Positions 5,512-22,517 of a DNA stretch of 64,000 nt are shown here, piece by piece (positions within the stretch are counted from its first letter, which is position 1; every line of letters starts with the position of its first letter). This stretch comes from a phage. Position numbers and translations under genes: made by a program. The notes under the pieces are model-generated. The model was not told the DNA's origin and searched no databases. It saw only the letters and a list, made by a program, of their open reading frames with translations. The DNA lies in assembly GCA_025829515.1 (NCBI GenBank), contig GCA_025829515.1_4865.1; one strand, written 5' to 3'.

Positions 5512-5913
5512 ATGACTATCAAGAAGTTCTTACAAACAGTAGTAGTTCTGGCCGCATGTGGTATCGCAGCAACTTATGCTTTCGATAAGCCAGACGTGAC
5601 TGAATACACATCAGCTGATTCGGATTATGGCATTGCGCCGAATGAAAAACCGGAACTGATGCGTGAGGTCGAACAGTTACAAATCTACAGACTGACGGAC
5701 GGTAAGAACTGCACAGGGCTGGTTATCGCTGATAAGAAATTGAAAATGTATCAGCGGTTAATCGACATATCGTGCAATCAACCAAAAGTCACCTCGGTCA
5801 GTGTATCGCCACTGGAATTACCGAATTTGGTTGCTGTGAGCTTTTATCACAACGATGTGCTCGTCGGTCGCATCACCCTCAATCGTGGAGATATCAAAAA
5901 TGAAATGCAATAA
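5512..5913 (+). CDS. putative lipoprotein (133 aa)
   Basis: N-terminal signal peptide with lipobox-like LAAC; first of four consecutive signal-peptide ORFs. Confidence 0.5.
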   Translation: MTIKKFLQTVVVLAACGIAATYAFDKPDVTEYTSADSDYGIAPNEKPELMREVEQLQIYRLTDGKNCTGLVIADKKLKMYQRLIDISCNQPKVTSVSVSPLELPNLVAVSFYHNDVLVGRITLNRGDIKNEMQ

Positions 5914-6413: not shown

Positions 6414-6824
6414 ATGAAACATTTTTTATTACCAGTTTTACTTGCTACTCTGGCCATTAGCTTCTTCGCTCGCGCTGGAAGTATCGAGTTACCAAAAGTT
6501 GTTAACGATCACGAATACGGCGGGCCGTTCTGGTGCCAGAACTCTGACGTACAAGGCGGTAGCTGTCAGATCGTTGCGATGTCCGATAACAACCGTTACC
6601 TGTTAGTGAAAACGATGGGCGGTGTCGCATGTGGCGACCCTGAATACGGGGTTATTAACATGGCAACAGGTCAGGCCGAATCCATGAACTACAATGATAA
6701 CCAAGCCTGTAGCGGTGAAGCCGTTGCTGAGTTTACTCGCGACCCAGGTGATAATGCCCTGACGGTTATCATGTACGACCCTACGATTAAGAAAAACGTA
6801 GGCATCAATAAACTCGACTTTTAA
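6414..6824 (+). CDS. putative secreted Cys-containing protein (136 aa)
   Basis: Signal peptide MKHFLLPVLLATLAISFFARA; GAGG RBS. Confidence 0.5.
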   Translation: MKHFLLPVLLATLAISFFARAGSIELPKVVNDHEYGGPFWCQNSDVQGGSCQIVAMSDNNRYLLVKTMGGVACGDPEYGVINMATGQAESMNYNDNQACSGEAVAEFTRDPGDNALTVIMYDPTIKKNVGINKLDF

Positions 6825-6837
6825 GTAAGGAAACAAC

Positions 6838-7221
6838 ATGCGTGGATTTATGGGTATTATCGCGGCGGTGTTCTTGACCGCTTCTGCTTCAGCTACAACC
6901 AGCGTAGAAGATTTACTGCCAGGCACACCGTATCAGTACAACCCGCCTTCATTCGAAGTCTGTACTGGCGACGATGGCAGATGTGAAGAAGTCAGCCGTC
7001 ACGACGAGTATATCCTGGTCCACGCAAAGGGCGAGGAAACTTGTCCGGCTGGTTACTACTTCTTGTTGAACTCAAAGGCACAAGAGATTGTGCCGGTAGA
7101 GACAATAACGTGCGACCCGACGCTTCGCGCGTCGCTCGCTTACAATACGAAAACCAAACAACGCCTCCTGGTTATTGAACAGCAAGGGGTGGTGCGTGGT
7201 TCAGTAGCGCTCGACCAGTAA
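6838..7221 (+). CDS. putative secreted Cys-containing protein (127 aa)
   Basis: Signal peptide; AAGGA RBS. Confidence 0.5.
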   Translation: MRGFMGIIAAVFLTASASATTSVEDLLPGTPYQYNPPSFEVCTGDDGRCEEVSRHDEYILVHAKGEETCPAGYYFLLNSKAQEIVPVETITCDPTLRASLAYNTKTKQRLLVIEQQGVVRGSVALDQ

Positions 7222-7255: not shown

Positions 7256-7350
7256 ATGACGACCCATCTCACTTTGGCCCTGCGGTGATTTCCCCAACAC
7301 TTAGCCGCAGGGTCCTTTTTAATCGACTATTACTCGTAAGGATTAAGCAA

Positions 7351-7851
7351 ATGAACATGAACATTCTCGACGATACCCGTTCTTCTTTCTTTACTCAGAT
7401 GAACGTCAATCCCGAACGTACCCGTGCCATTCTTTCCACTGGCTGGAAGTTAAAGCTGTTAGGCGAGTTAACCCTAAACCGCACCGACTGGCCAGAAGAA
7501 GCGACCGTATTGATTAACAGCATTCACAGCGAGTGGCTAGATGCTGCGTTGAATGCCCCACAACTACGTCCGTACTATCGGATGCTTCATGCGGGTTATG
7601 AAGTATACCGCAAAGGTTGGTACGCTGCAGCCACTTATTGCAAAACCCCTGAAGGTCGTGAAGACAACACTGTCGACCACGTATTAGTAAACAATTTCTG
7701 GGGCGACCAAATCGAAGTCTTACAACTTTCCACCGGTGACCGTATTCCGGCCTGTGAGTTATTCGAAACTAACGCACAAATGTACGAACCATATGCAATG
7801 ATTCGTGGCCGTAAGGTCCCAATCATTTCCCTTATGCATATGGGGCTGTAA
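7351..7851 (+). CDS. hypothetical protein (166 aa)
   Basis: Start placed at ATG 7351 with AAGGA RBS; followed by terminator. Confidence 0.5.
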   Translation: MNMNILDDTRSSFFTQMNVNPERTRAILSTGWKLKLLGELTLNRTDWPEEATVLINSIHSEWLDAALNAPQLRPYYRMLHAGYEVYRKGWYAAATYCKTPEGREDNTVDHVLVNNFWGDQIEVLQLSTGDRIPACELFETNAQMYEPYAMIRGRKVPIISLMHMGL

Positions 7852-7905: not shown

Positions 7906-8532
7906 ATGAACGAGATTACCCTGATTCGTTTCATCGACGACATGGTGACGTGTCAGAAAGCGAATCGTCAGGATACCAAACTACGTATCAATCTGATGGA
8001 AGAAGAGGTAGAAGGGTTTCTGGAATACCCGCGATTGGTGAAGTGGTTTAAAGAAGCACTGCCGCGTAGCTGGGAACAGCTCGAAGCGTGGTTTGCTCTA
8101 CCTATTGCAGAACGTAATCCCAATAATACGATCTTCACCGGAACTACTGCATTAGATTTGGCTGGTTCGGTGGAGCAACCTAAACGTTTAGTTTTCTTCT
8201 ACGTCAATGGCGATTCAATAATGGCTGATACAGTTAACTGGATTTCCGATGAGTTAACTGTAAACACCACTTTGGTCGGTAGCGCTGCTGATGCCTGGGT
8301 TGTTGGTCAGCACCAATCGCAACCGTACGAAGAAATCAAAACCGGTTATTTAATCCCGATATATCTCGACGGCGTGGCACCCGGTCGTAGTGCCGAACTG
8401 TTCAAATTCCTGCTTACTGAAACGTTAAAGGTTGTCGATTCTGATGCCGGACGTGCGTGGTACGAATTAACCAAAGAGCGCACCGATAGTTTTTGGGAAT
8501 CACTCGGACACCGTAAGTTTATTCCGCAATAA
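7906..8532 (+). CDS. hypothetical protein (208 aa)
   Basis: ORF with GAAGAAGGA RBS; followed by terminator. Confidence 0.55.
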   Translation: MNEITLIRFIDDMVTCQKANRQDTKLRINLMEEEVEGFLEYPRLVKWFKEALPRSWEQLEAWFALPIAERNPNNTIFTGTTALDLAGSVEQPKRLVFFYVNGDSIMADTVNWISDELTVNTTLVGSAADAWVVGQHQSQPYEEIKTGYLIPIYLDGVAPGRSAELFKFLLTETLKVVDSDAGRAWYELTKERTDSFWESLGHRKFIPQ

Positions 8533-8628: not shown

Positions 8629-11139
8629 ATGCTCAAGGTCGAACGTATCATTTTGAAAGGATTTACCGGCATGGGGTTACATGAAATCGAAACGTTTGAT
8701 TTCACCCTTAAGTCAACCGTTACCATCATCCTCGGTGGCAACGGCTGCGGTAAAACAAGCCTCCTATCTGTTTTTCTCCCCTTAGCTCCAGCAAAATCTG
8801 AATTCCGTGAAGGTGGTTCTTACACTAACTACGCGTTAGTCGGGGACGACCGTCTTAAGTTTGAAGTCCTGCGACGTGGGTCTTCTTTGTCTTGTAGTAT
8901 TTTCAATATCACTAAAGGTGTCTCCATCGTAGACTCGGTAAACGCCAAAGTTTACAACTCCATGGTGGAGCAATTAACCGGAATCACCAAAGAAATCAAA
9001 GAGTTAATTAATGGTGAGACCTTATTAACTGACGCCACTACCGAAGTTCGTCGTAAATGGTTTACGTTAATGTCAGAATCTGATCTGACGTACGTTGTTG
9101 GTTGCTATCGACGTTTGCGTAAACTCGCTTCCAGTTTAAGTGGGGCCATTGAGCACACCGGCCGTAAAATCGGTGAGGCAAAAATGCGCGTGGTGGACGA
9201 TGAAGAAGATCGTGCACGTTTGGAAGTTCGTTTGAAAGAACTCGATGCTGAGCTTCAGGAATTAAACCGCACAATTGAAGCGAGACCCGGTTTAGATAAT
9301 GCCGTTTCGGTTGATAGTATCCGGAAACGCATTGCTTCGTTGCAACCGGCTGTAAAACTCATTATGGAACGTTATGGCGTTCTGCCTTCTGACGAACTGA
9401 TTAACGAGTTTCAAAGTCGTGTGGTTGCCTGGCGTGAGCAAGCTGCCTCTGCTGAAACTGAATGCAACATGTACAATAAAGAGTTGTCACAGCTACTGGA
9501 TGAGGAGTCGCGTCAAGCGTATCTGATGCGCAACCATACCGGTCTAAAACAAACAATCGACAGCTTAAAACAGGAACTGGCAACGTTCCAACAGAACTGG
9601 ATGTTCCCGGCTCTGTTTGAAGGTACCCGCATTGATGTGGATAGCATTCAGAACGCGTTAAACGATGCCTGTAACTGGAATTTACCGTTGTCCATGCATC
9701 TGGACCAGTTAAAGACAACAGATCGCCTGGGAGCGTTAGAGAAGCGTTTACAGGGTATGGATTTAACCTCTGCGGGTCTATCTGAAAAGCTGCAACGTTG
9801 TGAGAATGTGCTACACGGTTTATACCACGACCGTCAACACTTCTTAGAAACTGCAGAAGTTGATTGTCCACAGTGTAACCACCGTTTCCGTCCTGGGATT
9901 CGTAAGTCGTTACCTGAAATTGAAAAGGCCATCAACGATAATGAAGGTTGGAAGAAGCAGCTGAAAGACGAAATGGATAGTCTTTTGCGTGACCGCAAAG
10001 AGATTGAAGAGGACGTCCGTAGCTTACGTACGATTCGCGAAATCGTCATGTCGTATTCCAACCATCCTGTTGTCGGTTTGTTTTTCCGTAAACTGCAGGA
10101 GCTGGATATCTTCACCACGGCGCGGGATCGTTATGGTGCCATTGCACGTGCCTTTACCGAAGAGTTAGATTCGGCCATGATGTATCTGCGTCAATCAGCG
10201 AAGCTTGCAACAGCGGAACGGGAATGGCAAGAGGCTGTTGCCGCAGTAGGTAATGTTGATGGTGCGCTGAGCCAGAAAATTGAACATATCCGTTCACAAC
10301 TGGACGGGGCTAACCGTCGACTGATAGAATACCGCAGACAAGCCAATGAGCTGGAACGCGAAACCACCCAACTGCAACAAACCAAAGAAGCAATCGAACG
10401 TTTCCAAAAAGGCTACGAACATCTGGTATCGGAAATGAACATCTCCGTTAACAACGTCGTGGTTCGCGAGTTGTTAAACCGACGCGAAGCGAAGCTCGAT
10501 GCGTACACTTCCGCTCGTGAACGGTTTCGTCAAATGGAAGGGGCTATTGCACGTTTAGCGGAATTGGAAAAAGAGCAAGCTGAGTTGCTCAAAGAACACC
10601 ATCATGCCAGATTGATTATCAATGCCGTCTCACCCGAAAAAGGATTATTGCGTCGTTACTTTTATGCTGCGATTACCCGCATCATGGATTTAATGAATCG
10701 GTATATCGAAATGGTGTGGGCATATCCGATGCAGGTTATTCCATGCGATCTAACCGACGGGGATTTGGATTATACTTTCCCGGTGCGATTAAAAGACCAT
10801 GAAGAACTGGTGCCGGATGTGAAGAAAGGTTCAAAAGCACAGCGTATCATTTTCAACATGATGTTTCGTTTAACGGCGTATAAAGCACTTGGTTTACAAA
10901 ATTATCCTTTGTTATTGGATGAACCATCTGAAGGCATGGATGAAGAACACAAAAACCGATTAGTTAACTTCATTAAATCGTTGGCGTTGTCGGGAGAGTT
11001 TTCTCAATTGCTGGTCGTTTCGCATGAAGCGGAAGTTCATTCTAAACTTAACGAAGCCACCTACTGTGTCGTAGAACCAGAAGGTGTAACGCTTCCACCG
11101 GTGTATAACGAAGGGGTAATAATCAAATATGCATCATAA
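8629..11139 (+). CDS. Rad50/SbcC-like SMC-family ATPase (836 aa)
   Basis: N-terminal Walker A ILGGNGCGKTSLL, long central coiled-coil-like region with CPQC zinc-hook-like motif, C-terminal Walker B LLLDEPSEGMDE. Confidence 0.75.
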   Translation: MLKVERIILKGFTGMGLHEIETFDFTLKSTVTIILGGNGCGKTSLLSVFLPLAPAKSEFREGGSYTNYALVGDDRLKFEVLRRGSSLSCSIFNITKGVSIVDSVNAKVYNSMVEQLTGITKEIKELINGETLLTDATTEVRRKWFTLMSESDLTYVVGCYRRLRKLASSLSGAIEHTGRKIGEAKMRVVDDEEDRARLEVRLKELDAELQELNRTIEARPGLDNAVSVDSIRKRIASLQPAVKLIMERYGVLPSDELINEFQSRVVAWREQAASAETECNMYNKELSQLLDEESRQAYLMRNHTGLKQTIDSLKQELATFQQNWMFPALFEGTRIDVDSIQNALNDACNWNLPLSMHLDQLKTTDRLGALEKRLQGMDLTSAGLSEKLQRCENVLHGLYHDRQHFLETAEVDCPQCNHRFRPGIRKSLPEIEKAINDNEGWKKQLKDEMDSLLRDRKEIEEDVRSLRTIREIVMSYSNHPVVGLFFRKLQELDIFTTARDRYGAIARAFTEELDSAMMYLRQSAKLATAEREWQEAVAAVGNVDGALSQKIEHIRSQLDGANRRLIEYRRQANELERETTQLQQTKEAIERFQKGYEHLVSEMNISVNNVVVRELLNRREAKLDAYTSARERFRQMEGAIARLAELEKEQAELLKEHHHARLIINAVSPEKGLLRRYFYAAITRIMDLMNRYIEMVWAYPMQVIPCDLTDGDLDYTFPVRLKDHEELVPDVKKGSKAQRIIFNMMFRLTAYKALGLQNYPLLLDEPSEGMDEEHKNRLVNFIKSLALSGEFSQLLVVSHEAEVHSKLNEATYCVVEPEGVTLPPVYNEGVIIKYAS

Positions 11140-11320
11140 AGGTTGGCGCTTATGGGCTTGGTGGGGTTTTCAGTTCCTTCAGTTTGTTGTGATGGTACTG
11201 TACCTCTCCTTTTGTGCAACCGTAGTGGTTATCGCTGCGGTCGTTTATTTAGCTGCTGCTCTTAAAGAACGTCTGTTCGACACGCGTTGTGAGTGGCGAG
11301 ATATAGGGGAACGGACATGA
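11129..11320 (+). CDS. small hydrophobic/membrane protein (63 aa)
   Basis: Trp-rich hydrophobic ORF; first of five overlapping small membrane-type ORFs. Confidence 0.35.
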   Translation: MHHKGWRLWAWWGFQFLQFVVMVLYLSFCATVVVIAAVVYLAAALKERLFDTRCEWRDIGERT

Positions 11321-11421
11321 TTGAAGGTATCGTATTAACCGGTATTGCACTGTGGTTGATTCGTGGTGCCTGGGGTTGGATTATCCGCACGAAAGGATGG
11401 GCGTTCCATGGCAACACGTAA
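11317..11421 (+). CDS. small membrane peptide (34 aa)
   Basis: ATGA overlap with preceding ORF; hydrophobic MIEGIVLTGIALWLIRGAWGW. Confidence 0.35.
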   Translation: MIEGIVLTGIALWLIRGAWGWIIRTKGWAFHGNT

Positions 11422-11611
11422 ACCACGTCGCTTAAAATCTTGGGCGGTTGTGATAATGCACACTGTAGTGTTGCTGGGTATTTTCTTGTCTCGTGCCACG
11501 CCTGCCTTTTGGGGCTTAGTTGTTTTGGTGTTCTTAGAAGGGGTTTACTTCGGTAATCTGTGGAGCAAGCCCCCGCGTTTAAGGGACCCGGCTTATGACA
11601 GTCGTGAATAG
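11408..11611 (+). CDS. small membrane protein (67 aa)
   Basis: AAGGA RBS; N-terminal basic stretch then TM segment. Confidence 0.4.
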   Translation: MATRKPRRLKSWAVVIMHTVVLLGIFLSRATPAFWGLVVLVFLEGVYFGNLWSKPPRLRDPAYDSRE

Positions 11612-11726
11612 TGTCAACGCGGCGATGATTGCAACGGGTGCGTATGACGGTGCCACATGGACAGATGTTGGTATCACGCTTATCATTTGCGCAATCGGAG
11701 CGTTTGTAGCAACATGGTTATTTTAG
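11595..11726 (+). CDS. small membrane peptide (43 aa)
   Basis: Overlapping start; hydrophobic ...GITLIICAIGAFVATWLF. Confidence 0.35.
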   Translation: MTVVNSVNAAMIATGAYDGATWTDVGITLIICAIGAFVATWLF

Positions 11727-11821
11727 TGAAATGGGTTGGGTGTATCGTCTGTAGCCTGATACTAGGAGCGGGCGCATACGCCCTAGGCGCAATCCTTGCA
11801 TTGACGCAAGGTTGGTTTTAA
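11726..11821 (+). CDS. small membrane peptide (31 aa, GTG start)
   Basis: GTG overlapping previous stop by 1 nt; hydrophobic CIVCSLILGAGAYALGAILAL. Confidence 0.3.
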   Translation: MKWVGCIVCSLILGAGAYALGAILALTQGWF

Positions 11822-11839
11822 CAGGAGGGTAATTACGAA

Positions 11840-12118
11840 GTGGGAGAAACGTCATGTAACAGTGAAACAGTCTCTGATCCCGTGGTCGTGGGTTCAGGGG
11901 CGGCCGAGCCAACCCGGCGTATCGTTCTTTCGGGCGTGGGGATGGCTATAGGGTCTTCAAAGAACCTTCTAGCAGACATCGCGGAAGTCTGCGGGCCGGA
12001 TGATTTTGCAGTTTCACGTACAGTCGGGGAAGACTGGCGTGGTAATCAGAAGCGCCATGAGCGAATGTGGCGACGGAAGGTTACCTCAGCATCGCAGCGT
12101 TTTCAACGACGTTGTTGA
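11840..12118 (+). CDS. hypothetical protein (92 aa, GTG start)
   Basis: Strong AGGAGGG RBS before GTG; coding status uncertain. Confidence 0.3.
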   Translation: MGETSCNSETVSDPVVVGSGAAEPTRRIVLSGVGMAIGSSKNLLADIAEVCGPDDFAVSRTVGEDWRGNQKRHERMWRRKVTSASQRFQRRC

Positions 12119-12237: not shown

Positions 12238-12753
12238 GTGAAAGCTCACTTAGGAATTCAGCTCATGGCCGAAATTGTCATTCTTTCCTCATCCTCAGAT
12301 TTAACGGAAGCACAAAATAAACAGCTGTTGGGGCTGCATTATAAATTTCTGAACCACCAACGTACCATACTCCATATCGAAAAAGGTGAGATTCCGAACC
12401 TCACTCTGGAGAAACTGTTGGCGGGGAACCGTGCCTGCGTTGCTCTGGAAGGGGGCACCCCTGTTGGTTACTGTTTGTATCGCGTAATCGCTGGGGTTCT
12501 GAAGATTCGTACGATGTTCGTGTCCGAAATGGCACGCCGTCGCAAAACGATGACGCAGATTTTTGATGCGCTTGATGTGAATGAGCAGTTCACCAGTGCG
12601 CATGGGGGAATATACGCTTGCCAGGAAGCTGGTATTGCGTTCTTTACCGCTCGCGGTTTTGACAAGACCGTCTCTACAGACGGACAATGGCTTGAATTTA
12701 AGAAGCAGGTTCCTGCGGAAGCAGATGAACCTTTAAGGACTGCGGTAGCATAG
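12238..12753 (+). CDS. putative GNAT-family acetyltransferase-like protein
   Basis: Weak resemblance to GNAT acetyl-CoA binding region; start uncertain (GTG 12238 or ATG 12265). Confidence 0.35.
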   Translation: MKAHLGIQLMAEIVILSSSSDLTEAQNKQLLGLHYKFLNHQRTILHIEKGEIPNLTLEKLLAGNRACVALEGGTPVGYCLYRVIAGVLKIRTMFVSEMARRRKTMTQIFDALDVNEQFTSAHGGIYACQEAGIAFFTARGFDKTVSTDGQWLEFKKQVPAEADEPLRTAVA

Positions 12754-12823: not shown

Positions 12824-13042
12824 ATGTTTCACCGTCCTGGGTTTTCAGCTTTAAACACCGATGTCTGTTGGGCTGAGTACGAGCGGGTGAAGGAGTTCTT
12901 ACCCGTAAATCCTAAACACATCAACGTGGGTACTATCGGGCGTGTTGCGTTCGATGATACTCCGCTGAGTACGTGTATTAAAGCAGCGCTTGGTACGCTG
13001 CCTGAGCCTCACCACCACGACTGGGAGGCAACTTTACCCTAA
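12824..13042 (+). CDS. hypothetical protein (72 aa)
   Basis: GAGGAG RBS upstream of ATG 12824. Confidence 0.35.
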   Translation: MFHRPGFSALNTDVCWAEYERVKEFLPVNPKHINVGTIGRVAFDDTPLSTCIKAALGTLPEPHHHDWEATLP

Positions 13043-13476: not shown

Positions 13477-13725
13477 ATGCAAAAAACAATCATCGGAATA
13501 ACGGTTGGTTCTTTCTGTGGCTTCCCTACCCCACAAACAGAACCCCAATATTTGGGCGCAGGCAAACCTGACCCGGAAGTCCGTAAGTTGCGCGAAGAAG
13601 CAAAAGCCAGAGTTCTTACTGAGCTGGAATCGTTGCTTCAGTCTCCGGTTATTTCACAATGGGGTATGGCAATAGATGTCACTCGAACTGATCGACGAGG
13701 CCGTTATCTCCCACGACTTGTTTAA
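13477..13725 (+). CDS. hypothetical protein (82 aa)
   Basis: AAGGA RBS; abuts previous stop. Confidence 0.45.
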   Translation: MQKTIIGITVGSFCGFPTPQTEPQYLGAGKPDPEVRKLREEAKARVLTELESLLQSPVISQWGMAIDVTRTDRRGRYLPRLV

Positions 13726-14176
13726 CGCGCCTGAGCGCTTCAAGGTCGTTACAGTTAACTGCGTTGGTGCAATGGGAAGGGGCATTGCCTTGGCGTGCCG
13801 AGAACGCTTCCCATCGCTTTATAATGACTATCGCCAGAAATGCCGTAAAGAGCAAATCGTTATCGGTGAGGTCTATTGTTATCCTGAGGAAGGGGTAATA
13901 CTCCTTCCTACTAAAACCCATTTTCGCTATAAATCGCAGATTTACTATGTCACGTCCGGCATTGATGCGCTGGCGCGACTAGGGGAAGACTTAGAAGGAG
14001 GGATTGCGATACCACCCCTAGGGATGGCTAACGGTTGGTTACGTTACCATGAGCGATTGGAAATCTTTATACACTTACAGAAACGACTACAGCACACGGA
14101 GCAGACTTATCGATTCTATTTACCGGACACCTTGCTGAGGGAAGCAGAGAAAATCATCCCAAATAGTTTCAAATAG
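13676..14176 (+). CDS. macro-domain (ADP-ribose binding/processing) protein (166 aa)
   Basis: VVTVNCVGAMGRGIALAC and GIAIPPLGMANGW resemble macro-domain Gly-rich loop and second conserved loop. Confidence 0.55.
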   Translation: MSLELIDEAVISHDLFNAPERFKVVTVNCVGAMGRGIALACRERFPSLYNDYRQKCRKEQIVIGEVYCYPEEGVILLPTKTHFRYKSQIYYVTSGIDALARLGEDLEGGIAIPPLGMANGWLRYHERLEIFIHLQKRLQHTEQTYRFYLPDTLLREAEKIIPNSFK

Positions 14177-14275: not shown

Positions 14276-14998
14276 ATGTTTCGCACCATTTTATTTCTTC
14301 TGGTAGCAATGACTACGTTCAACAGCAACGCTTCTTACCAGACCACCAGTAACAAACACCAAAAAGAATTCGTCCTTATCCAGGACCAGTTCAATGAGAT
14401 TAAACCTCTCATCGTCACCGCATCTCGAAAACAAGGCGTACATGCCGGGATGCTCGCGACCACCATTTATCGTGAATCCCGTTTTAATAAAAACGTGGGT
14501 AAGAATAAATCGAGCAGTGCTAGTAGTGTTGTCCAAATGACGACAGGCACTAAACGCTCCATGATACGTCTGTATGGGAAACAACTTAACATCCCAAAGA
14601 ATGCGGACCTTAATAAACCGAAGTATGCTGTACAGCTTGCTGCCGTTTACATGAAACACATCGAGGATCATCTGACAAAACAACTCAAACGCAAGCCGAG
14701 CACAGCCGAAATCGCTTTAGGCTACCGCTTCGGTGAGGGTGCTGCTGTTGCGATGATTAAAAAGAAATCACCGGTCGGGAAACGCTGGATGGCCAGCTAC
14801 CGAAAAGACGCAGCATTCTACGGTGCGAAAATGACACCACCGAAAGCTGAAACACGTCAGCTTGCTTTTGCGAAGGAAGACCGCGACCAACGCGTCGCTG
14901 AGCTTCAGAAAATCTGGGATACGCTGTACACCAAAATATCACCTGCGGCCGGTACATTACTGGCAAATAACACTATCATGAAAGGAGCATTGCTTTGA
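14276..14998 (+). CDS. secreted lytic transglycosylase-like protein (240 aa)
   Basis: N-terminal signal peptide; TIYRESRFN...SSVVQMTTGT resembles SLT catalytic E-S and GLMQ motifs. Confidence 0.55.
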   Translation: MFRTILFLLVAMTTFNSNASYQTTSNKHQKEFVLIQDQFNEIKPLIVTASRKQGVHAGMLATTIYRESRFNKNVGKNKSSSASSVVQMTTGTKRSMIRLYGKQLNIPKNADLNKPKYAVQLAAVYMKHIEDHLTKQLKRKPSTAEIALGYRFGEGAAVAMIKKKSPVGKRWMASYRKDAAFYGAKMTPPKAETRQLAFAKEDRDQRVAELQKIWDTLYTKISPAAGTLLANNTIMKGALL

Positions 14999-20283: not shown

Positions 20284-21003
20284 ATGACATATCCTAAAAT
20301 TCTGCCTGTTTTAACACCAACCGTGGTTGTTGGGACGGACTTAGAAACTCTGGCCTTGCGTCCAGATGCCTACATCTTAACGTTGGCAAACGTGGCATTC
20401 GATGTTCCGACAATGAAAATGATCGGTTCATGTTACCACAAAATCGACCCCAACGATGCAAAAGCAAAAGAAATCTTCTACATCGATCCACAAACGGTCG
20501 GTTATTGGGAAGGTAAAGGCGACCCCGAATACGCACCGAGCGAGAAAGCACGTATTGAAGCGTTTTCTGGGACCACTCCACTGCCAGAAGCACTGTGGGC
20601 GGCCAAAAAATGGTTGGATGATCTGGGCAACGTGAAAATGGTTATCACCATGCGCGGTCCCGATTTCGATGCTCCAATTCTGATGAACGCATTCGCGCAG
20701 TGCGATATCCCGCCGGGCAAGTACCGCAAGTTTTCTATATTGGACTCTGACCGGACTGCAGAACGTATTGCATATGCGTTTGGCCTGGAACCGAACTGGC
20801 ACGCAGAAGCGCACCACTGGACCCGTGGCAAAGAAGCGTACGAGCATAACGCTAACTTTGATGCTGCGAAGGAAGCGTATTCTACGGCACGCATCTATCA
20901 TTTGGCCCTGGTCGCGCGTACGTACGGCTTCGAACGCATGTTAGAAGCCCACCGCGAAATGTGCACAGGTGAATACATTCCACCGCAGTTGCGAGGAGAA
21001 TAA
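20284..21003 (+). CDS. DnaQ-like DEDD 3'-5' exonuclease (239 aa)
   Basis: VVGTDLETLAL (Exo I D-x-E), PDFDAPIL (Exo II), HNANFDAAKEAY (Exo III-like). Confidence 0.6.
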   Translation: MTYPKILPVLTPTVVVGTDLETLALRPDAYILTLANVAFDVPTMKMIGSCYHKIDPNDAKAKEIFYIDPQTVGYWEGKGDPEYAPSEKARIEAFSGTTPLPEALWAAKKWLDDLGNVKMVITMRGPDFDAPILMNAFAQCDIPPGKYRKFSILDSDRTAERIAYAFGLEPNWHAEAHHWTRGKEAYEHNANFDAAKEAYSTARIYHLALVARTYGFERMLEAHREMCTGEYIPPQLRGE

Positions 21004-22517
21004 TGAAAGACGTCGACGTAGCGGTTATTTATACCGATGGTAGTCATACTGAGTCCCCGAAAGGTTCGGGGGCTGGTATTCATGGTTATTTATTCAACAA
21101 CGGAGATTTGGAAGACAGTCAGGCTTATAGCCATCCGGGTGTTTCAGAACGGATTACCACTGTTGGATACAAAAAAGTGCCGCAGGATGTGAAGTGTCCG
21201 GAGTTGCCGGACACCGTTCAATTTGTCGACGCCGTTATTCCCGTTCCGAAAGAGTTCTACTCAGATGTGGGCGAGTTAATCGCCTTCATCACGTTGTTTG
21301 AGAACGCGCCCTTCCGCGCGAAGAACTATATCATCTACGTGGATGCCAGTTACGTTGTAAACACTTTTAACGAGTGGATAGACGGGTGGCATAAACGTGG
21401 TTGGGTTCGTGCTGACGGTACTCCGCTGGCGAACAAAGAACTTATTGTTCGTATCTGGGAAATCAAACAGCAGATGAAAAAAGAAGGACGGGGTGTTAAG
21501 GTTATCAAAATCAAAGGACACTCCGGCCACTACGGTAACGACCGGGCGGACGAATTGGCTAGAAAAGGTTCAGCCATCACAGCGACCAACGACGGCGTTC
21601 CATATCAGCCGTACTGGTCGAAGGATGAGTTGCCTGCATCCGCGGAACCCGAGCCCATCGCCGCTGGGATGAACCTTGCGGCATATCCGCCGGTTTGTAC
21701 GGTTAAATATTGCTATCCGTTGGTGAACGAGGACCATCCTACTGTAAAAGTGAAAGATGAAACTTTCTATTACATGTTTGGTGGCAACCATGCAAAGAAC
21801 AAGGACGACTTGGTGTTTATTGGGAAAATGATTCCTGATGCACACTTTTCCGTAATGTTCACTAAACAACCGTGGGATAACATCTACACGATTGTAAACA
21901 ACCACGCCGCCCTGGCATGGAAAGATACACCGAAGATGCGGCAGTATGATCCAATCGGTGTTGTTAACAATGAGTTCGTTAAACGTAAGAAGTTCGTTGA
22001 CGTGGCAGGTGATGGATTACCGGCAGACAAGATGCATTTCAGTGGAGAAGATTCCAATGTCTGGTTCTTTGAAGACCTGGCCATCTCCAGAATGCTTCGC
22101 CCGCCCTTATTGTCGTACCGTGCGCTGGATATTCGTGACGAACTCGCTACAACGTTGAGAGATGTTCTGCATCAGGAAAAGGGTTATGTCTTAAATGATA
22201 TTACTGACTTGTTGTTCGATGACAAAGGTAAGCCTGTTAAGGAATACTACCGTAGCGTCGATAAGTCAATAACGTTAAAGATTGACTTTCCGATGGGTAA
22301 ACGACCTGTCTCGGTTATTTTGACGCGTGGTATTGATATTCCATCGCGTACGGAAATCAACCGTATTAAAGAACCCGAAGGCCGTTATTACATCGCGGTG
22401 TGTCGTCCTGAAAAATACTACATCCGTTACTTCTTAATCTATATCGGTAAAGAGTATCATGGGTTGTGGTGTGCGTATTACGCAAACCGTCGCATACTGC
22501 GAGAAGAAGAGGTGTAA
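21003..22517 (+). CDS. RNase HI-domain protein with ~300-aa C-terminal extension (504 aa)
   Basis: VIYTDGS, ELIAF, YVDASYV, WHKRGW, KGHSGHYGNDRADELARKG match RNase HI catalytic motifs; TAATG overlap with upstream exonuclease. Confidence 0.85.
   Translation: MKDVDVAVIYTDGSHTESPKGSGAGIHGYLFNNGDLEDSQAYSHPGVSERITTVGYKKVPQDVKCPELPDTVQFVDAVIPVPKEFYSDVGELIAFITLFENAPFRAKNYIIYVDASYVVNTFNEWIDGWHKRGWVRADGTPLANKELIVRIWEIKQQMKKEGRGVKVIKIKGHSGHYGNDRADELARKGSAITATNDGVPYQPYWSKDELPASAEPEPIAAGMNLAAYPPVCTVKYCYPLVNEDHPTVKVKDETFYYMFGGNHAKNKDDLVFIGKMIPDAHFSVMFTKQPWDNIYTIVNNHAALAWKDTPKMRQYDPIGVVNNEFVKRKKFVDVAGDGLPADKMHFSGEDSNVWFFEDLAISRMLRPPLLSYRALDIRDELATTLRDVLHQEKGYVLNDITDLLFDDKGKPVKEYYRSVDKSITLKIDFPMGKRPVSVILTRGIDIPSRTEINRIKEPEGRYYIAVCRPEKYYIRYFLIYIGKEYHGLWCAYYANRRILREEEV

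Follow-up and report, generated by a model that had tools for sequence, protein, structure and literature searches.

The gene at positions 8,629 to 11,139 encodes a Rad50/SbcC-type ATPase; profile, PDB-sequence and fold searches all placed Rad50/SbcC closest. Judged by sequence comparison, its product very probably forms, together with a nuclease of the gp27 type, a phage-encoded DNA-end-processing complex of the Mre11-Rad50 (SbcCD) type, in which it is the SbcC/Rad50 subunit. The window (the whole analysed stretch of 64,000 nucleotides) was assigned to Seoulvirus, the SPN3US-like Salmonella jumbo phages. Feature coordinates are listed in Table 1.

Table 1. Coordinates of the ATPase gene, its domains and motifs, and the overlapping downstream reading frame.
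Feature	Residues	Nucleotides	Strand	Basis or remark
SbcC/Rad50-type ABC ATPase gene		8629..11139	+	ATG start, TAA stop; 836 aa, 95.7 kDa; orthologue of SPN3US gp186 and phiKZ ORF165
N-terminal head half	1-137	8629..9039	+	Pfam matches at residues 4-130, phmmer, beta-rich in AlphaFold2 model
Walker A, GGNGCGKT	36-43	8734-8757	+	motif
Outgoing coiled-coil arm (predicted)	138-407	9040..9849	+	AlphaFold2 and heptad test; helical with short breaks
Hook turn	408-427	9850..9909	+	non-helical between the arms in AlphaFold2 model
CPQC within DCPQCNHRF	413-416	9865-9876	+	protein midpoint at residue 418
Returning coiled-coil arm (predicted)	428-667	9910..10629	+	AlphaFold2 and heptad test
C-terminal head half	668-836	10630..11136	+	phmmer to 3qkt, invariant residues
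Variant signature motif S-K-A-Q	735-738	10831-10842	+	aligned to Rad50 signature
Walker B, LLLDE	761-765	10909-10923	+	motif; LLLDEP is 761-766, nt 10909-10926
D-loop, PSEGMD		10924-10941	+	motif
H-loop, S-H	798-799	11020-11025	+	invariant in alignment
63-codon ORF with one hydrophobic segment		11129..11320	+	orthologue of SPN3US gp187; start overlaps ATPase gene end by 11 nt

Identity and relatives of the ATPase gene

A GAAGG ribosome-binding site is located 7-8 nt 5' of the ATG codon. The gene shared 97-99% DNA identity with 34 Seoulvirus-type genomes. On the protein level, the product was 100% identical to that of SPLA1a and differed from SPN3US gp186 in 3 amino acids. The SPN3US protein is thus effectively identical, with the same size and the same neighbours including the overlapping gp187. 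The phage of the window is a separate isolate without SPN3US gene 193, and no substantial difference was found.

In PHROGs, phrog_77 ('SbcC-like subunit') matched residues 1-835 (E = 1.5e-96, 326 bits). Rad50 heads were the top matches of a PDB sequence search for N lobe and C lobe alike. Using phmmer, residues 3-50 were aligned to P. furiosus Rad50, and residues 736-805 to its structure 3qkt (E = 7.9e-5) with KAQR opposite GGER. ABC transporters aside, the best NCBIfam matches were one SMC-related model and three Rad50 models. Curated cutoffs were not reached, which is ascribed to divergence: Pfam SMC_N, AAA_15 and AAA_23 all stayed below theirs (SMC_N with 28.9 bits vs a cutoff of 40), and the NCBIfam Rad50 equivalog models gave 40-59 bits vs cutoffs of 700-1087, which are tuned to close orthologues and constitute no family-level criterion. 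As the nuclease gp27 (see below) also missed its Pfam cutoff, family membership of both proteins was judged from more sensitive profiles and from fold. With the AlphaFold2 model as query, the top Foldseek match in the PDB was full-length C. thermophilum Rad50 in the MRN complex (7zr1; E = 4e-20, approximately 900 columns aligned). Smc5/6, condensin and MukB were also found (E 1e-13 to 1e-17). The Rad50/SbcC-like identity given in the preliminary description was therefore supported alike by phrog_77, PDB-sequence and NCBIfam searches, the AlphaFold2 model and Foldseek.

In OQ383623 and MT679221, the ATPase is mislabelled 'nuclease SbcCD subunit D', although it represents subunit C. In some records, the homologue is annotated as 'SMC domain-containing protein'.

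Head halves, predicted coiled-coil arms and zinc-hook motif

As modelled, two helical arms of antiparallel type interrupt the bipartite ABC head of the ATPase and meet at a conserved CPxC hook. Conservation was assessed in an alignment of 24 ATPase homologues with identities down to 29%. Invariant were G36, N38, G39, G41 and K42 in the N-terminal Walker A motif, D764 and E765 in the C-terminal Walker B motif, S798 and H799 of the H-loop, and both hook cysteines, C413 and C416, which marks the motifs as no mere chance matches. Of the signature motif, S735, A737 and Q738 were invariant. The two head halves characteristic of Rad50/SbcC proteins are hence present, with an S-K-A-Q variant in place of S-G-G-Q/E. 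N128-G129-E130 (nt 9010-9018) was taken as the Q-loop position by analogy to Rad50 sequences, and N128 presumably replaces the Rad50 Q-loop glutamine.

The AlphaFold2 model (mean pLDDT 82.6) displayed a head-arm-hook-arm-head topology. Only its secondary structure was used, and packing of the arms against each other is a prediction. Helices comprised residues 138-188, 192-217, 228-247, 255-318, 337-360 and 367-407 in the outgoing arm, and 428-476, 482-491, 499-538 and 547-667 in the returning arm. For the heptad test, period-3.5 power in the conserved-hydrophobicity profile was compared with 1000 shuffles. The N-arm (residues 138-407) scored z = 7.3 and the C-arm (428-667) z = 9.1, values reached by 0/1000 shuffles in either case. 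The two head lobes gave z = 1.4 and 0.6, and the periodicity is thus confined to the arms. A score of a/d occupancy was uncalibrated and uninformative and was replaced by this power test. Together with the Foldseek match to 7zr1, helices and periodicity point to a long coiled coil between the head halves, as in Rad50/SbcC.

CPQC is located inside the sole non-helical turn between the arms, at the place of an SMC hinge. The family motif of the hook was EV-x-C-P-x-C-x3-F-[RK]-P-G, with P414 in at least 90% of the 24 homologues. Walker A, heptad-rich middle, Rad50-like DCPQCNHRF and LLLDEP had all been noticed in the preliminary description and were recovered here, and the coiled-coil prediction proposed there placed the arms in the middle region.

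The protein resembles archaeal and eukaryotic Rad50 (P. furiosus; C. thermophilum 7zr1) in its bipartite ABC head, predicted long antiparallel coiled coil, C-P-x-C apex and Mre11-family partner. It differs in sequence (only about 14% of residues identical when aligned by fold), in its signature (S-K-A-Q vs S-G-G-E), in the partner gene, which is not adjacent, and in that the phage has no Nbs1-type third subunit.

Neighbouring genes and the distant nuclease partner

Within the window, no gene for a nuclease partner was detected. The upstream ORFs 7285-7851 and 7906-8532 had no Pfam match at E <= 0.1 and hit only PHROGs of unknown function; the ORFs downstream of the ATPase gene are small and hydrophobic. 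With SPN3US gp27 as tblastn query against all six frames of the window, the best match had E = 0.66. Scanning window ORFs of at least 150 aa for GNH[DE] and for a five-motif Mre11 pattern, which does detect gp27, yielded nothing. These results bear out the statement that no phosphoesterase flanks the gene. Two annotated nucleases were considered as partners and rejected: the 'exonuclease' at 20284-21003, about 9 kb downstream, has an Rv2179c-like 3'-5' exoribonuclease fold, and the 'ribonuclease' at 21003-22517 is an RNase H-domain protein; neither is a phosphoesterase. Seven further large ORFs in the vicinity, all of unknown function, gave no significant Pfam match, with marginal ones below cutoff only, and no RNA genes were revealed when the window was scanned for tRNAs and against Rfam.

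The partner was located in SPN3US, where SbcD has been assigned to gp27 (PMC5105663), and of the alternatives in the preliminary description, a nuclease encoded elsewhere is thus the correct one. On the SPN3US record (240,413 bp), gp27 occupies 21,020-22,168 and the SbcC gene 168,900-171,410, a spacing of about 146.7 kb in one direction and about 90 kb in the other. gp27 matched phrog_100 (SbcD-like) with E = 8.5e-64. Pfam Metallophos remained below its cutoff (E = 0.032; 15.1 vs 21.5 bits) and single-sequence phmmer against the PDB gave no match, for which reasons a family profile was needed. With this profile, 15/15 PDB matches were Mre11/SbcD, the best being 3qg5_C (T. maritima Mre11 of the Mre11-Rad50 complex; E = 2.3e-13, 17-378 on 2-367). 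All five phosphoesterase motifs are present in gp27 (D22-I-H24, G57-D-L-F-D61, G97-T-P-S-H101-D102, H180 and G211-H-D-H214) and across 33 homologues each was either invariant or conserved in at least 90%. Motif III is a G-T-P-S-H-D variant of G-N-H-D/E with S100 opposite the canonical Asn. By profile and motifs, gp27 is a genuine Mre11/SbcD-family phosphoesterase.

ATPase and nuclease have nearly the same distribution across phiKZ-type/Chimalliviridae-type jumbo phages (298 and 290 phage records, respectively, with near-identical genus counts). In the proposed synteny comparison, the genes were separated by about 90-170 kb (linear coordinates) in 13/13 records found for both proteins among the matches listed. 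The genes are not adjacent because gene order is scattered, as is typical of phiKZ-type phages; their separation does not indicate that the partner is absent or has been replaced.

The 63-codon ORF is a neighbour of the ATPase gene by position. It was 33% identical to gp208 of Erwinia phage Asesino, and the overlap arrangement is common to both. [quoted passage not shown]

Proposed function of the complex and alternative explanations

By analogy to Rad50/SbcC, T4 gp46/gp47 and E. coli SbcCD, the ATPase would act as a dimer of two protomers joined via ATP-sandwiching heads and via a Zn2+ ion common to the four hook cysteines. The ATPase dimer would bind a gp27 nuclease dimer, and the resulting complex would clamp DNA ends or hairpins and license ATP-dependent resection, which would in turn feed recombination-dependent replication and genome-end processing. 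Both E. coli SbcCD and T4 gp46/gp47 are such ATPase-plus-nuclease pairs for DNA ends or hairpins, and phrog_77 and phrog_100 apply to both; T4 is known to depend on its two genes for recombination-dependent replication (also cited in PMC5105663). With 836 aa, the phage ATPase ranges between T4 gp46 (63.6 kDa) and E. coli SbcC (1048 aa; sizes from PMC5105663), and plain BLASTP showed no similarity of gp186 to T4 gp46 (PMC5105663). Gene order differs, as the E. coli (sbcDC operon) and T4 (46-46.1-46.2-47) genes are clustered, whereas those of SPN3US are approximately 147 kb apart.

Alternatively, the ATPase could work without Mre11/SbcD, for instance as a DNA-tethering or condensing SMC-like protein, with gp27 as an unrelated phosphoesterase. 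Such a role would fit the separation of the two genes, which may occupy different transcription units, the 'SMC domain-containing protein' annotation, and the appearance of Smc5/6, condensin and MukB among the fold matches. It is nevertheless very unlikely: the apex is a CPxC hook and no SMC hinge domain, Rad50 was top in sequence and fold searches, and the two proteins are almost identical in phyletic distribution. Moreover, the gp27 family aligned to Mre11 over its full length, including the C-terminal region past the nuclease core, and matched Mre11/SbcD only. Since gp27 is a genuine Mre11/SbcD, the earlier proposal that the ATPase acts alone is unnecessary. An SMC-like ATPase of a phage-borne defence or counter-defence system (Lamassu LmuB-, Wadjet JetC- or DndD-like) has hardly any likelihood. 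PADLOC did match LmuB (E = 1.4e-20, 72 bits), JetC and DndD, and Lamassu and Wadjet structures were among the fold matches; the PADLOC matches are expected because Rad50/SMC ancestry is shared, and the 72 bits of LmuB compare with 326 bits over the full length for the phage SbcC family. Neither neighbour matched any PADLOC model, no LmuA/LmuC or JetABD partner adjoins the gene, and the gene is essential for phage growth (SPN3US) and part of the family's conserved gene set.

The preliminary description also considered that the ATPase acts with the downstream membrane peptides. Coupling to these small proteins (gp187-gp189 equivalents) as a membrane anchor is highly improbable. Translational coupling would fit the 11-nt overlap between the end of the ATPase gene and the beginning of the 63-codon ORF, both the arrangement and homologous small hydrophobic ORFs recur in Asesino (ATPase 62% identical), and an analogy to T4 gp46/47 and gp47.1, once suggested as membrane-anchored, has been raised (PMC5105663). 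However, in Cronobacter phage CR5, whose ATPase is 43% identical, and in a phiKZ-type phage, the region following the ATPase gene contained no sequence homologues of the small ORFs; in the phiKZ-type phage, a gene on the opposite strand with a non-hydrophobic product comes next. Among Seoulviruses, divergence is far quicker in the small ORFs (78-97% amino acid identity) than in the ATPase (>99%), and the small ORFs had no match in any library searched. Conserved in close relatives only, the peptides lend this proposal no support beyond their position.

An SbcC/Rad50 subunit working with a gp27-type nuclease agrees with earlier reports. gp186 was reported in 2016 as an essential SbcC subunit using an amber mutant (Thomas et al. 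2016, J Virol 90:10284; PMC5105663). In the same study, its split ABC domain was described, the essentiality of gp27 was inferred but not demonstrated, and the SPN3US SbcC and SbcD genes were called "drastically separated". phiKZ orf165 had no Tn insertions (PMC12676376), knock-down of phiKZ 165 by ASO caused a phenotype (PMC12571901), and practically all jumbo phages have SbcC and SbcD (PMC7824862). The system is therefore the ordinary, already known split SbcCD/Mre11-Rad50, with nothing new in gene, essentiality, partner or separation. Additions of the present analysis are the invariance of the hook cysteines and the independent profile- and structure-based confirmation of gp27 as an Mre11-family nuclease despite the missed Pfam threshold.

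The S-K-A-Q and G-T-P-S-H-D variants are real, conserved sequence features, and with variants in signature motif and motif III, catalytic details may differ from those of the model enzymes. It is unlikely that the phiKZ-type/Chimalliviridae Mre11-Rad50 would represent a mechanistically distinct variant defined by S-K-A-Q and G-T-P-S-H-D (Ser for the metal-ligand Asn), which in the SPN3US/Erwinia-phage lineage would perhaps be coupled to overlapping small membrane proteins that position it, e.g. at a membrane-associated infection stage. For phiKZ-type genomes, the finding means that a partner gene which is not adjacent says nothing about the partner being absent.

Features of the ATPase gene product

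The Rad50/SbcC-like ATPase gene is preceded by a GAAGG ribosome-binding site 7-8 nt 5' of its start. Walker A, hook and Walker B motifs, as quoted in the preliminary description, were all found in the product (see table). For conservation analysis, 24 homologues with identity down to 29% were aligned. Invariant were the Walker A residues, D764/E765, S798/H799 and S735/A737/Q738 and, around the hook, both cysteines, F420, P422 and G423.

Coordinates of the ATPase gene, its motifs, neighbouring genes and SPN3US counterparts
Feature	Position	Strand	Remarks
ATPase gene	8629-11139	+	ATG start, TAA stop; 836 aa; calculated mass 95.7 kDa
Walker A, GGNGCGKT	ATPase residues 36-43
Hook, CPQC	ATPase residues 413-416		protein midpoint, residue 418
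Walker B, LLLDEP	ATPase residues 761-766
Small ORF	5855/5897-6391	+	first of three consecutive weak paralogues
Small ORF	6414-6824	+	second paralogue
Small ORF	6838-7221	+	third paralogue
Small hydrophobic ORF	11129-11320	+	63 aa; after ATPase gene
Small hydrophobic ORF	11408-11611	+	67 aa; after ATPase gene
Small hydrophobic ORF	11595-11726	+	43 aa; after ATPase gene; overlaps next ORF
Small hydrophobic ORF	11657-11821	+	54 aa; after ATPase gene
GNAT acetyltransferase	12238-12753	+	downstream of ATPase gene
Macro-domain (ADP-ribose-binding/Appr-1-p processing) protein	13676-14176	+	downstream of ATPase gene
SLT-type transglycosylase	14276-14998	+	downstream of ATPase gene
Rv2179c-like 3'-5' exoribonuclease-fold protein	20284-21003	+	Pfam E = 1.2e-8
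RNase H-domain protein	21003-22517	+	504 aa; E = 8e-22; directly after exoribonuclease-fold gene
SPN3US_0186	168,900-171,410 of JN641803		same length as window ATPase gene
gp27 (SPN3US)	21,020-22,168 of JN641803		382 aa

In PHROGs, the full-length ATPase (residues 1-835) was assigned to phrog_77, "SbcC-like subunit of palindrome specific endonuclease" (E = 1.5e-96). Pfam gave sub-threshold N-terminal P-loop/SMC_N matches only. ABC transporters aside, the closest NCBIfam models were three for Rad50 and one for an archaeal SMC-related protein, and each scored far under its equivalog cutoff. The nearest PDB sequences were Rad50 heads (P. furiosus 3qkt, C. thermophilum 5da9), with alignments in the N-lobe (residues 1-105) as well as the C-lobe (736-805).

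An AlphaFold2 model built from the 24-homologue alignment (mean pLDDT 82.6) showed a beta-rich N-lobe, helices with short breaks (138-407), a non-helical turn (408-427) containing CPQC, helices 428-667 and an alpha/beta C-lobe. With Foldseek, the top PDB match was the full-length chain of C. thermophilum Rad50 from the Mre11-Rad50-Nbs1 complex (7zr1_D, E = 4e-20), followed by Smc5/6, condensin, MukB, Lamassu and Wadjet ATPases. Coiled coil was assessed from the conserved-hydrophobicity profile, by comparing its power at period 3.5 with that of 1000 shuffles. The two arms (138-407 and 428-667) reached z = 7.3 and 9.1, equalled in 0/1000 shuffles, and the head lobes 1.4 and 0.6; the coiled coil expected for the middle of the protein is thus supported.

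Genomic context in Seoulvirus phages

At the DNA level the ATPase gene shares 97-99% identity with its counterparts in 34 Salmonella, Escherichia and Proteus jumbo phages of the genus Seoulvirus (about 240 kb, type phage SPN3US), and three residues separate its product from SPN3US gp186. By the match to SPN3US_0186, the window corresponds approximately to SPN3US 160.3-224.3 kb. SPN3US_0187 (63 codons) overlaps the end of SPN3US_0186 by 11 nt, an arrangement identical in the window; its product gp187 has a predicted transmembrane domain (63 aa, PMC5105663). Records OQ383623.1 and MT679221.1 label the ATPase "nuclease SbcCD subunit D", the wrong subunit name; others use "Chromosome partition protein Smc" or "hypothetical protein".

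As the preliminary description stated, no nuclease partner adjoins the ATPase gene. The upstream ORFs 7285-7851 and 7906-8532 had no Pfam match and fall into PHROGs without assigned function, the ORFs downstream are small and hydrophobic, and sequence resembling gp27, the SPN3US SbcD-like nuclease, was found nowhere in the 64-kb window. Two candidates 9 kb downstream were rejected as partner: the "exonuclease" is the Rv2179c-like protein and the "ribonuclease" the RNase H-domain protein. The RNase HI-domain protein phiKZ 155 gave a strong ASO knock-down phenotype (PMC12571901).

The small downstream ORFs are 78-97% identical among Seoulviruses, diverging more quickly than the ATPase. Of the overlapping pair, it is frame 11657-11821 that is conserved and not the one annotated as gp189 in SPN3US; which ORFs are called within 11129-11821 differs between records. 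The 2-kb bin 10001-12000, covering the ATPase 3' end and the small-ORF region, has a GC skew of 0.144, compared with about 0.0-0.06 in adjoining bins. Further downstream, the GNAT, macro-domain and SLT genes lie close together in an order shared with Erwinia phage Asesino. SPN3US gene 193 (172 aa, function unknown; 9302-9820 in the compared SPN3US sequence L007) is missing at 13002-13041, where about 550 bp are absent between flanks aligning at 99%; it is present in MET_P1_082_240 and not in SPLA5c, and is therefore a presence/absence polymorphism within the genus. The three paralogues upstream of the ATPase gene (27% mutual identity; E = 1.5e-8 and 3e-5, tiny database) each have a signal-peptide-like hydrophobic N-terminus, which that of ORF 5512-5913 resembles, and several cysteines; they may be a secreted or periplasmic family.

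The distant nuclease and alternative readings

In SPN3US genetics (2016, PMC5105663), gp186 is the SbcC subunit, essential by amber mutant, and gp27 the SbcD subunit. Pfam Metallophos matched gp27 under cutoff (E = 0.032) and single-sequence phmmer found no PDB match. PHROGs assigned gp27 to phrog_100, "SbcD-like subunit" (E = 8.5e-64), and its only three NCBIfam matches were SbcD and two Mre11 models. A gp27-family profile (33 homologues) gave 15 PDB matches, all Mre11 or SbcD, with T. maritima Mre11 of the Mre11-Rad50 complex best (3qg5_C, E = 2.3e-13, residues 17-378 vs 2-367). Five phosphoesterase motifs are kept: D22-x-H24, G57-D-x2-D61, G97-T-P-S-H101-D102, H180 and G211-H-x-H214. Motif III carries a two-residue insertion and Ser at the canonical Asn position, a deviation that probably explains the weak Pfam score. 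A partner encoded elsewhere, one of three options offered previously, is thereby borne out.

For distribution analysis, both proteins were searched by tblastn against 50,697 phage records, and ATPase was found in 298 and nuclease in 290. Counts per genus were nearly equal: Pseudomonas 81 each, Erwinia 62, Serratia 21, Aeromonas 19, Klebsiella 16, Ralstonia 13, Vibrio 22 and 23, Salmonella 33 and 24 (ATPase and nuclease). The Salmonella difference is probably due to corrupted SPFM sequences, several records there having poorly aligning predicted proteins. In SPFM1, 5, 6, 7, 9, 12, 15 and 20 (P0038-P0045, P0078/P0081/P0083), the SbcC-like and SbcD-like proteins ranked high by HMMER; BLASTP covered just 4-25% of the query, which suggests frameshifted or otherwise corrupted assemblies. 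Among the matches listed in both searches, the genes were adjacent in none of 13 records. Linear distances were ~146 kb in SPFM17, JN03 and SPLA3 and ~90 kb in the permuted record SPFM3 (records ~240 kb), ~112 kb in phiKZ-type SL2 and ANB1 (~279 kb), ~132 kb in PhiPA3 (309 kb), ~106 kb in Noxifer (278 kb), ~94 kb in Aphrodite1 (238 kb), ~90 kb in pEt-SU (277 kb), ~168 kb in AH06 (275 kb), ~171 kb in LAh10 (260 kb) and ~119 kb in SPLA10 (210 kb). In comparative genomics of jumbo phages, SbcC and SbcD are called "practically universally conserved" (PMC7824862), and among soft-core gene families the D subunit ranks first (PMC11448039).

That the ATPase works alone as an SMC-like protein is unlikely, since its apex is a hook and not a hinge, Rad50 is its best match and the nuclease distribution follows its own. 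Coupling to the downstream membrane ORFs is suggested by position only: in Asesino, three homologues (33%, 45% and 35% identity) follow the ATPase (62% identical) in the same order, whereas sequence comparison with Cronobacter phage CR5 and with one phiKZ-type phage found none. Membership in a defence system, to which the best PADLOC match (LmuB, 72 bits) would point, is extremely improbable, because the phage SbcC family scores 326 bits, partner genes are absent nearby and the gene is essential.

Proposed function of the gp186-gp27 pair

The ATPase without adjacent nuclease is confirmed, and in its essentials the finding had been described before. Three minor points may not have been spelled out in the literature consulted: the CPxC hook is invariant, the ATPase signature is the variant S-K-A-Q and nuclease motif III the variant G-T-P-S-H-D. 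When phiKZ 165, the phiKZ orthologue, was knocked down by antisense, the phenotype was mild (PMC12571901). By analogy with Rad50-Mre11, SbcCD and T4 gp46/47, gp186 heads would dimerise, driven by ATP, hooks would dimerise through Zn, and a gp27 dimer would bind at the coiled-coil base. Such a complex would clamp and resect DNA ends or hairpins, leading to recombination-dependent replication.
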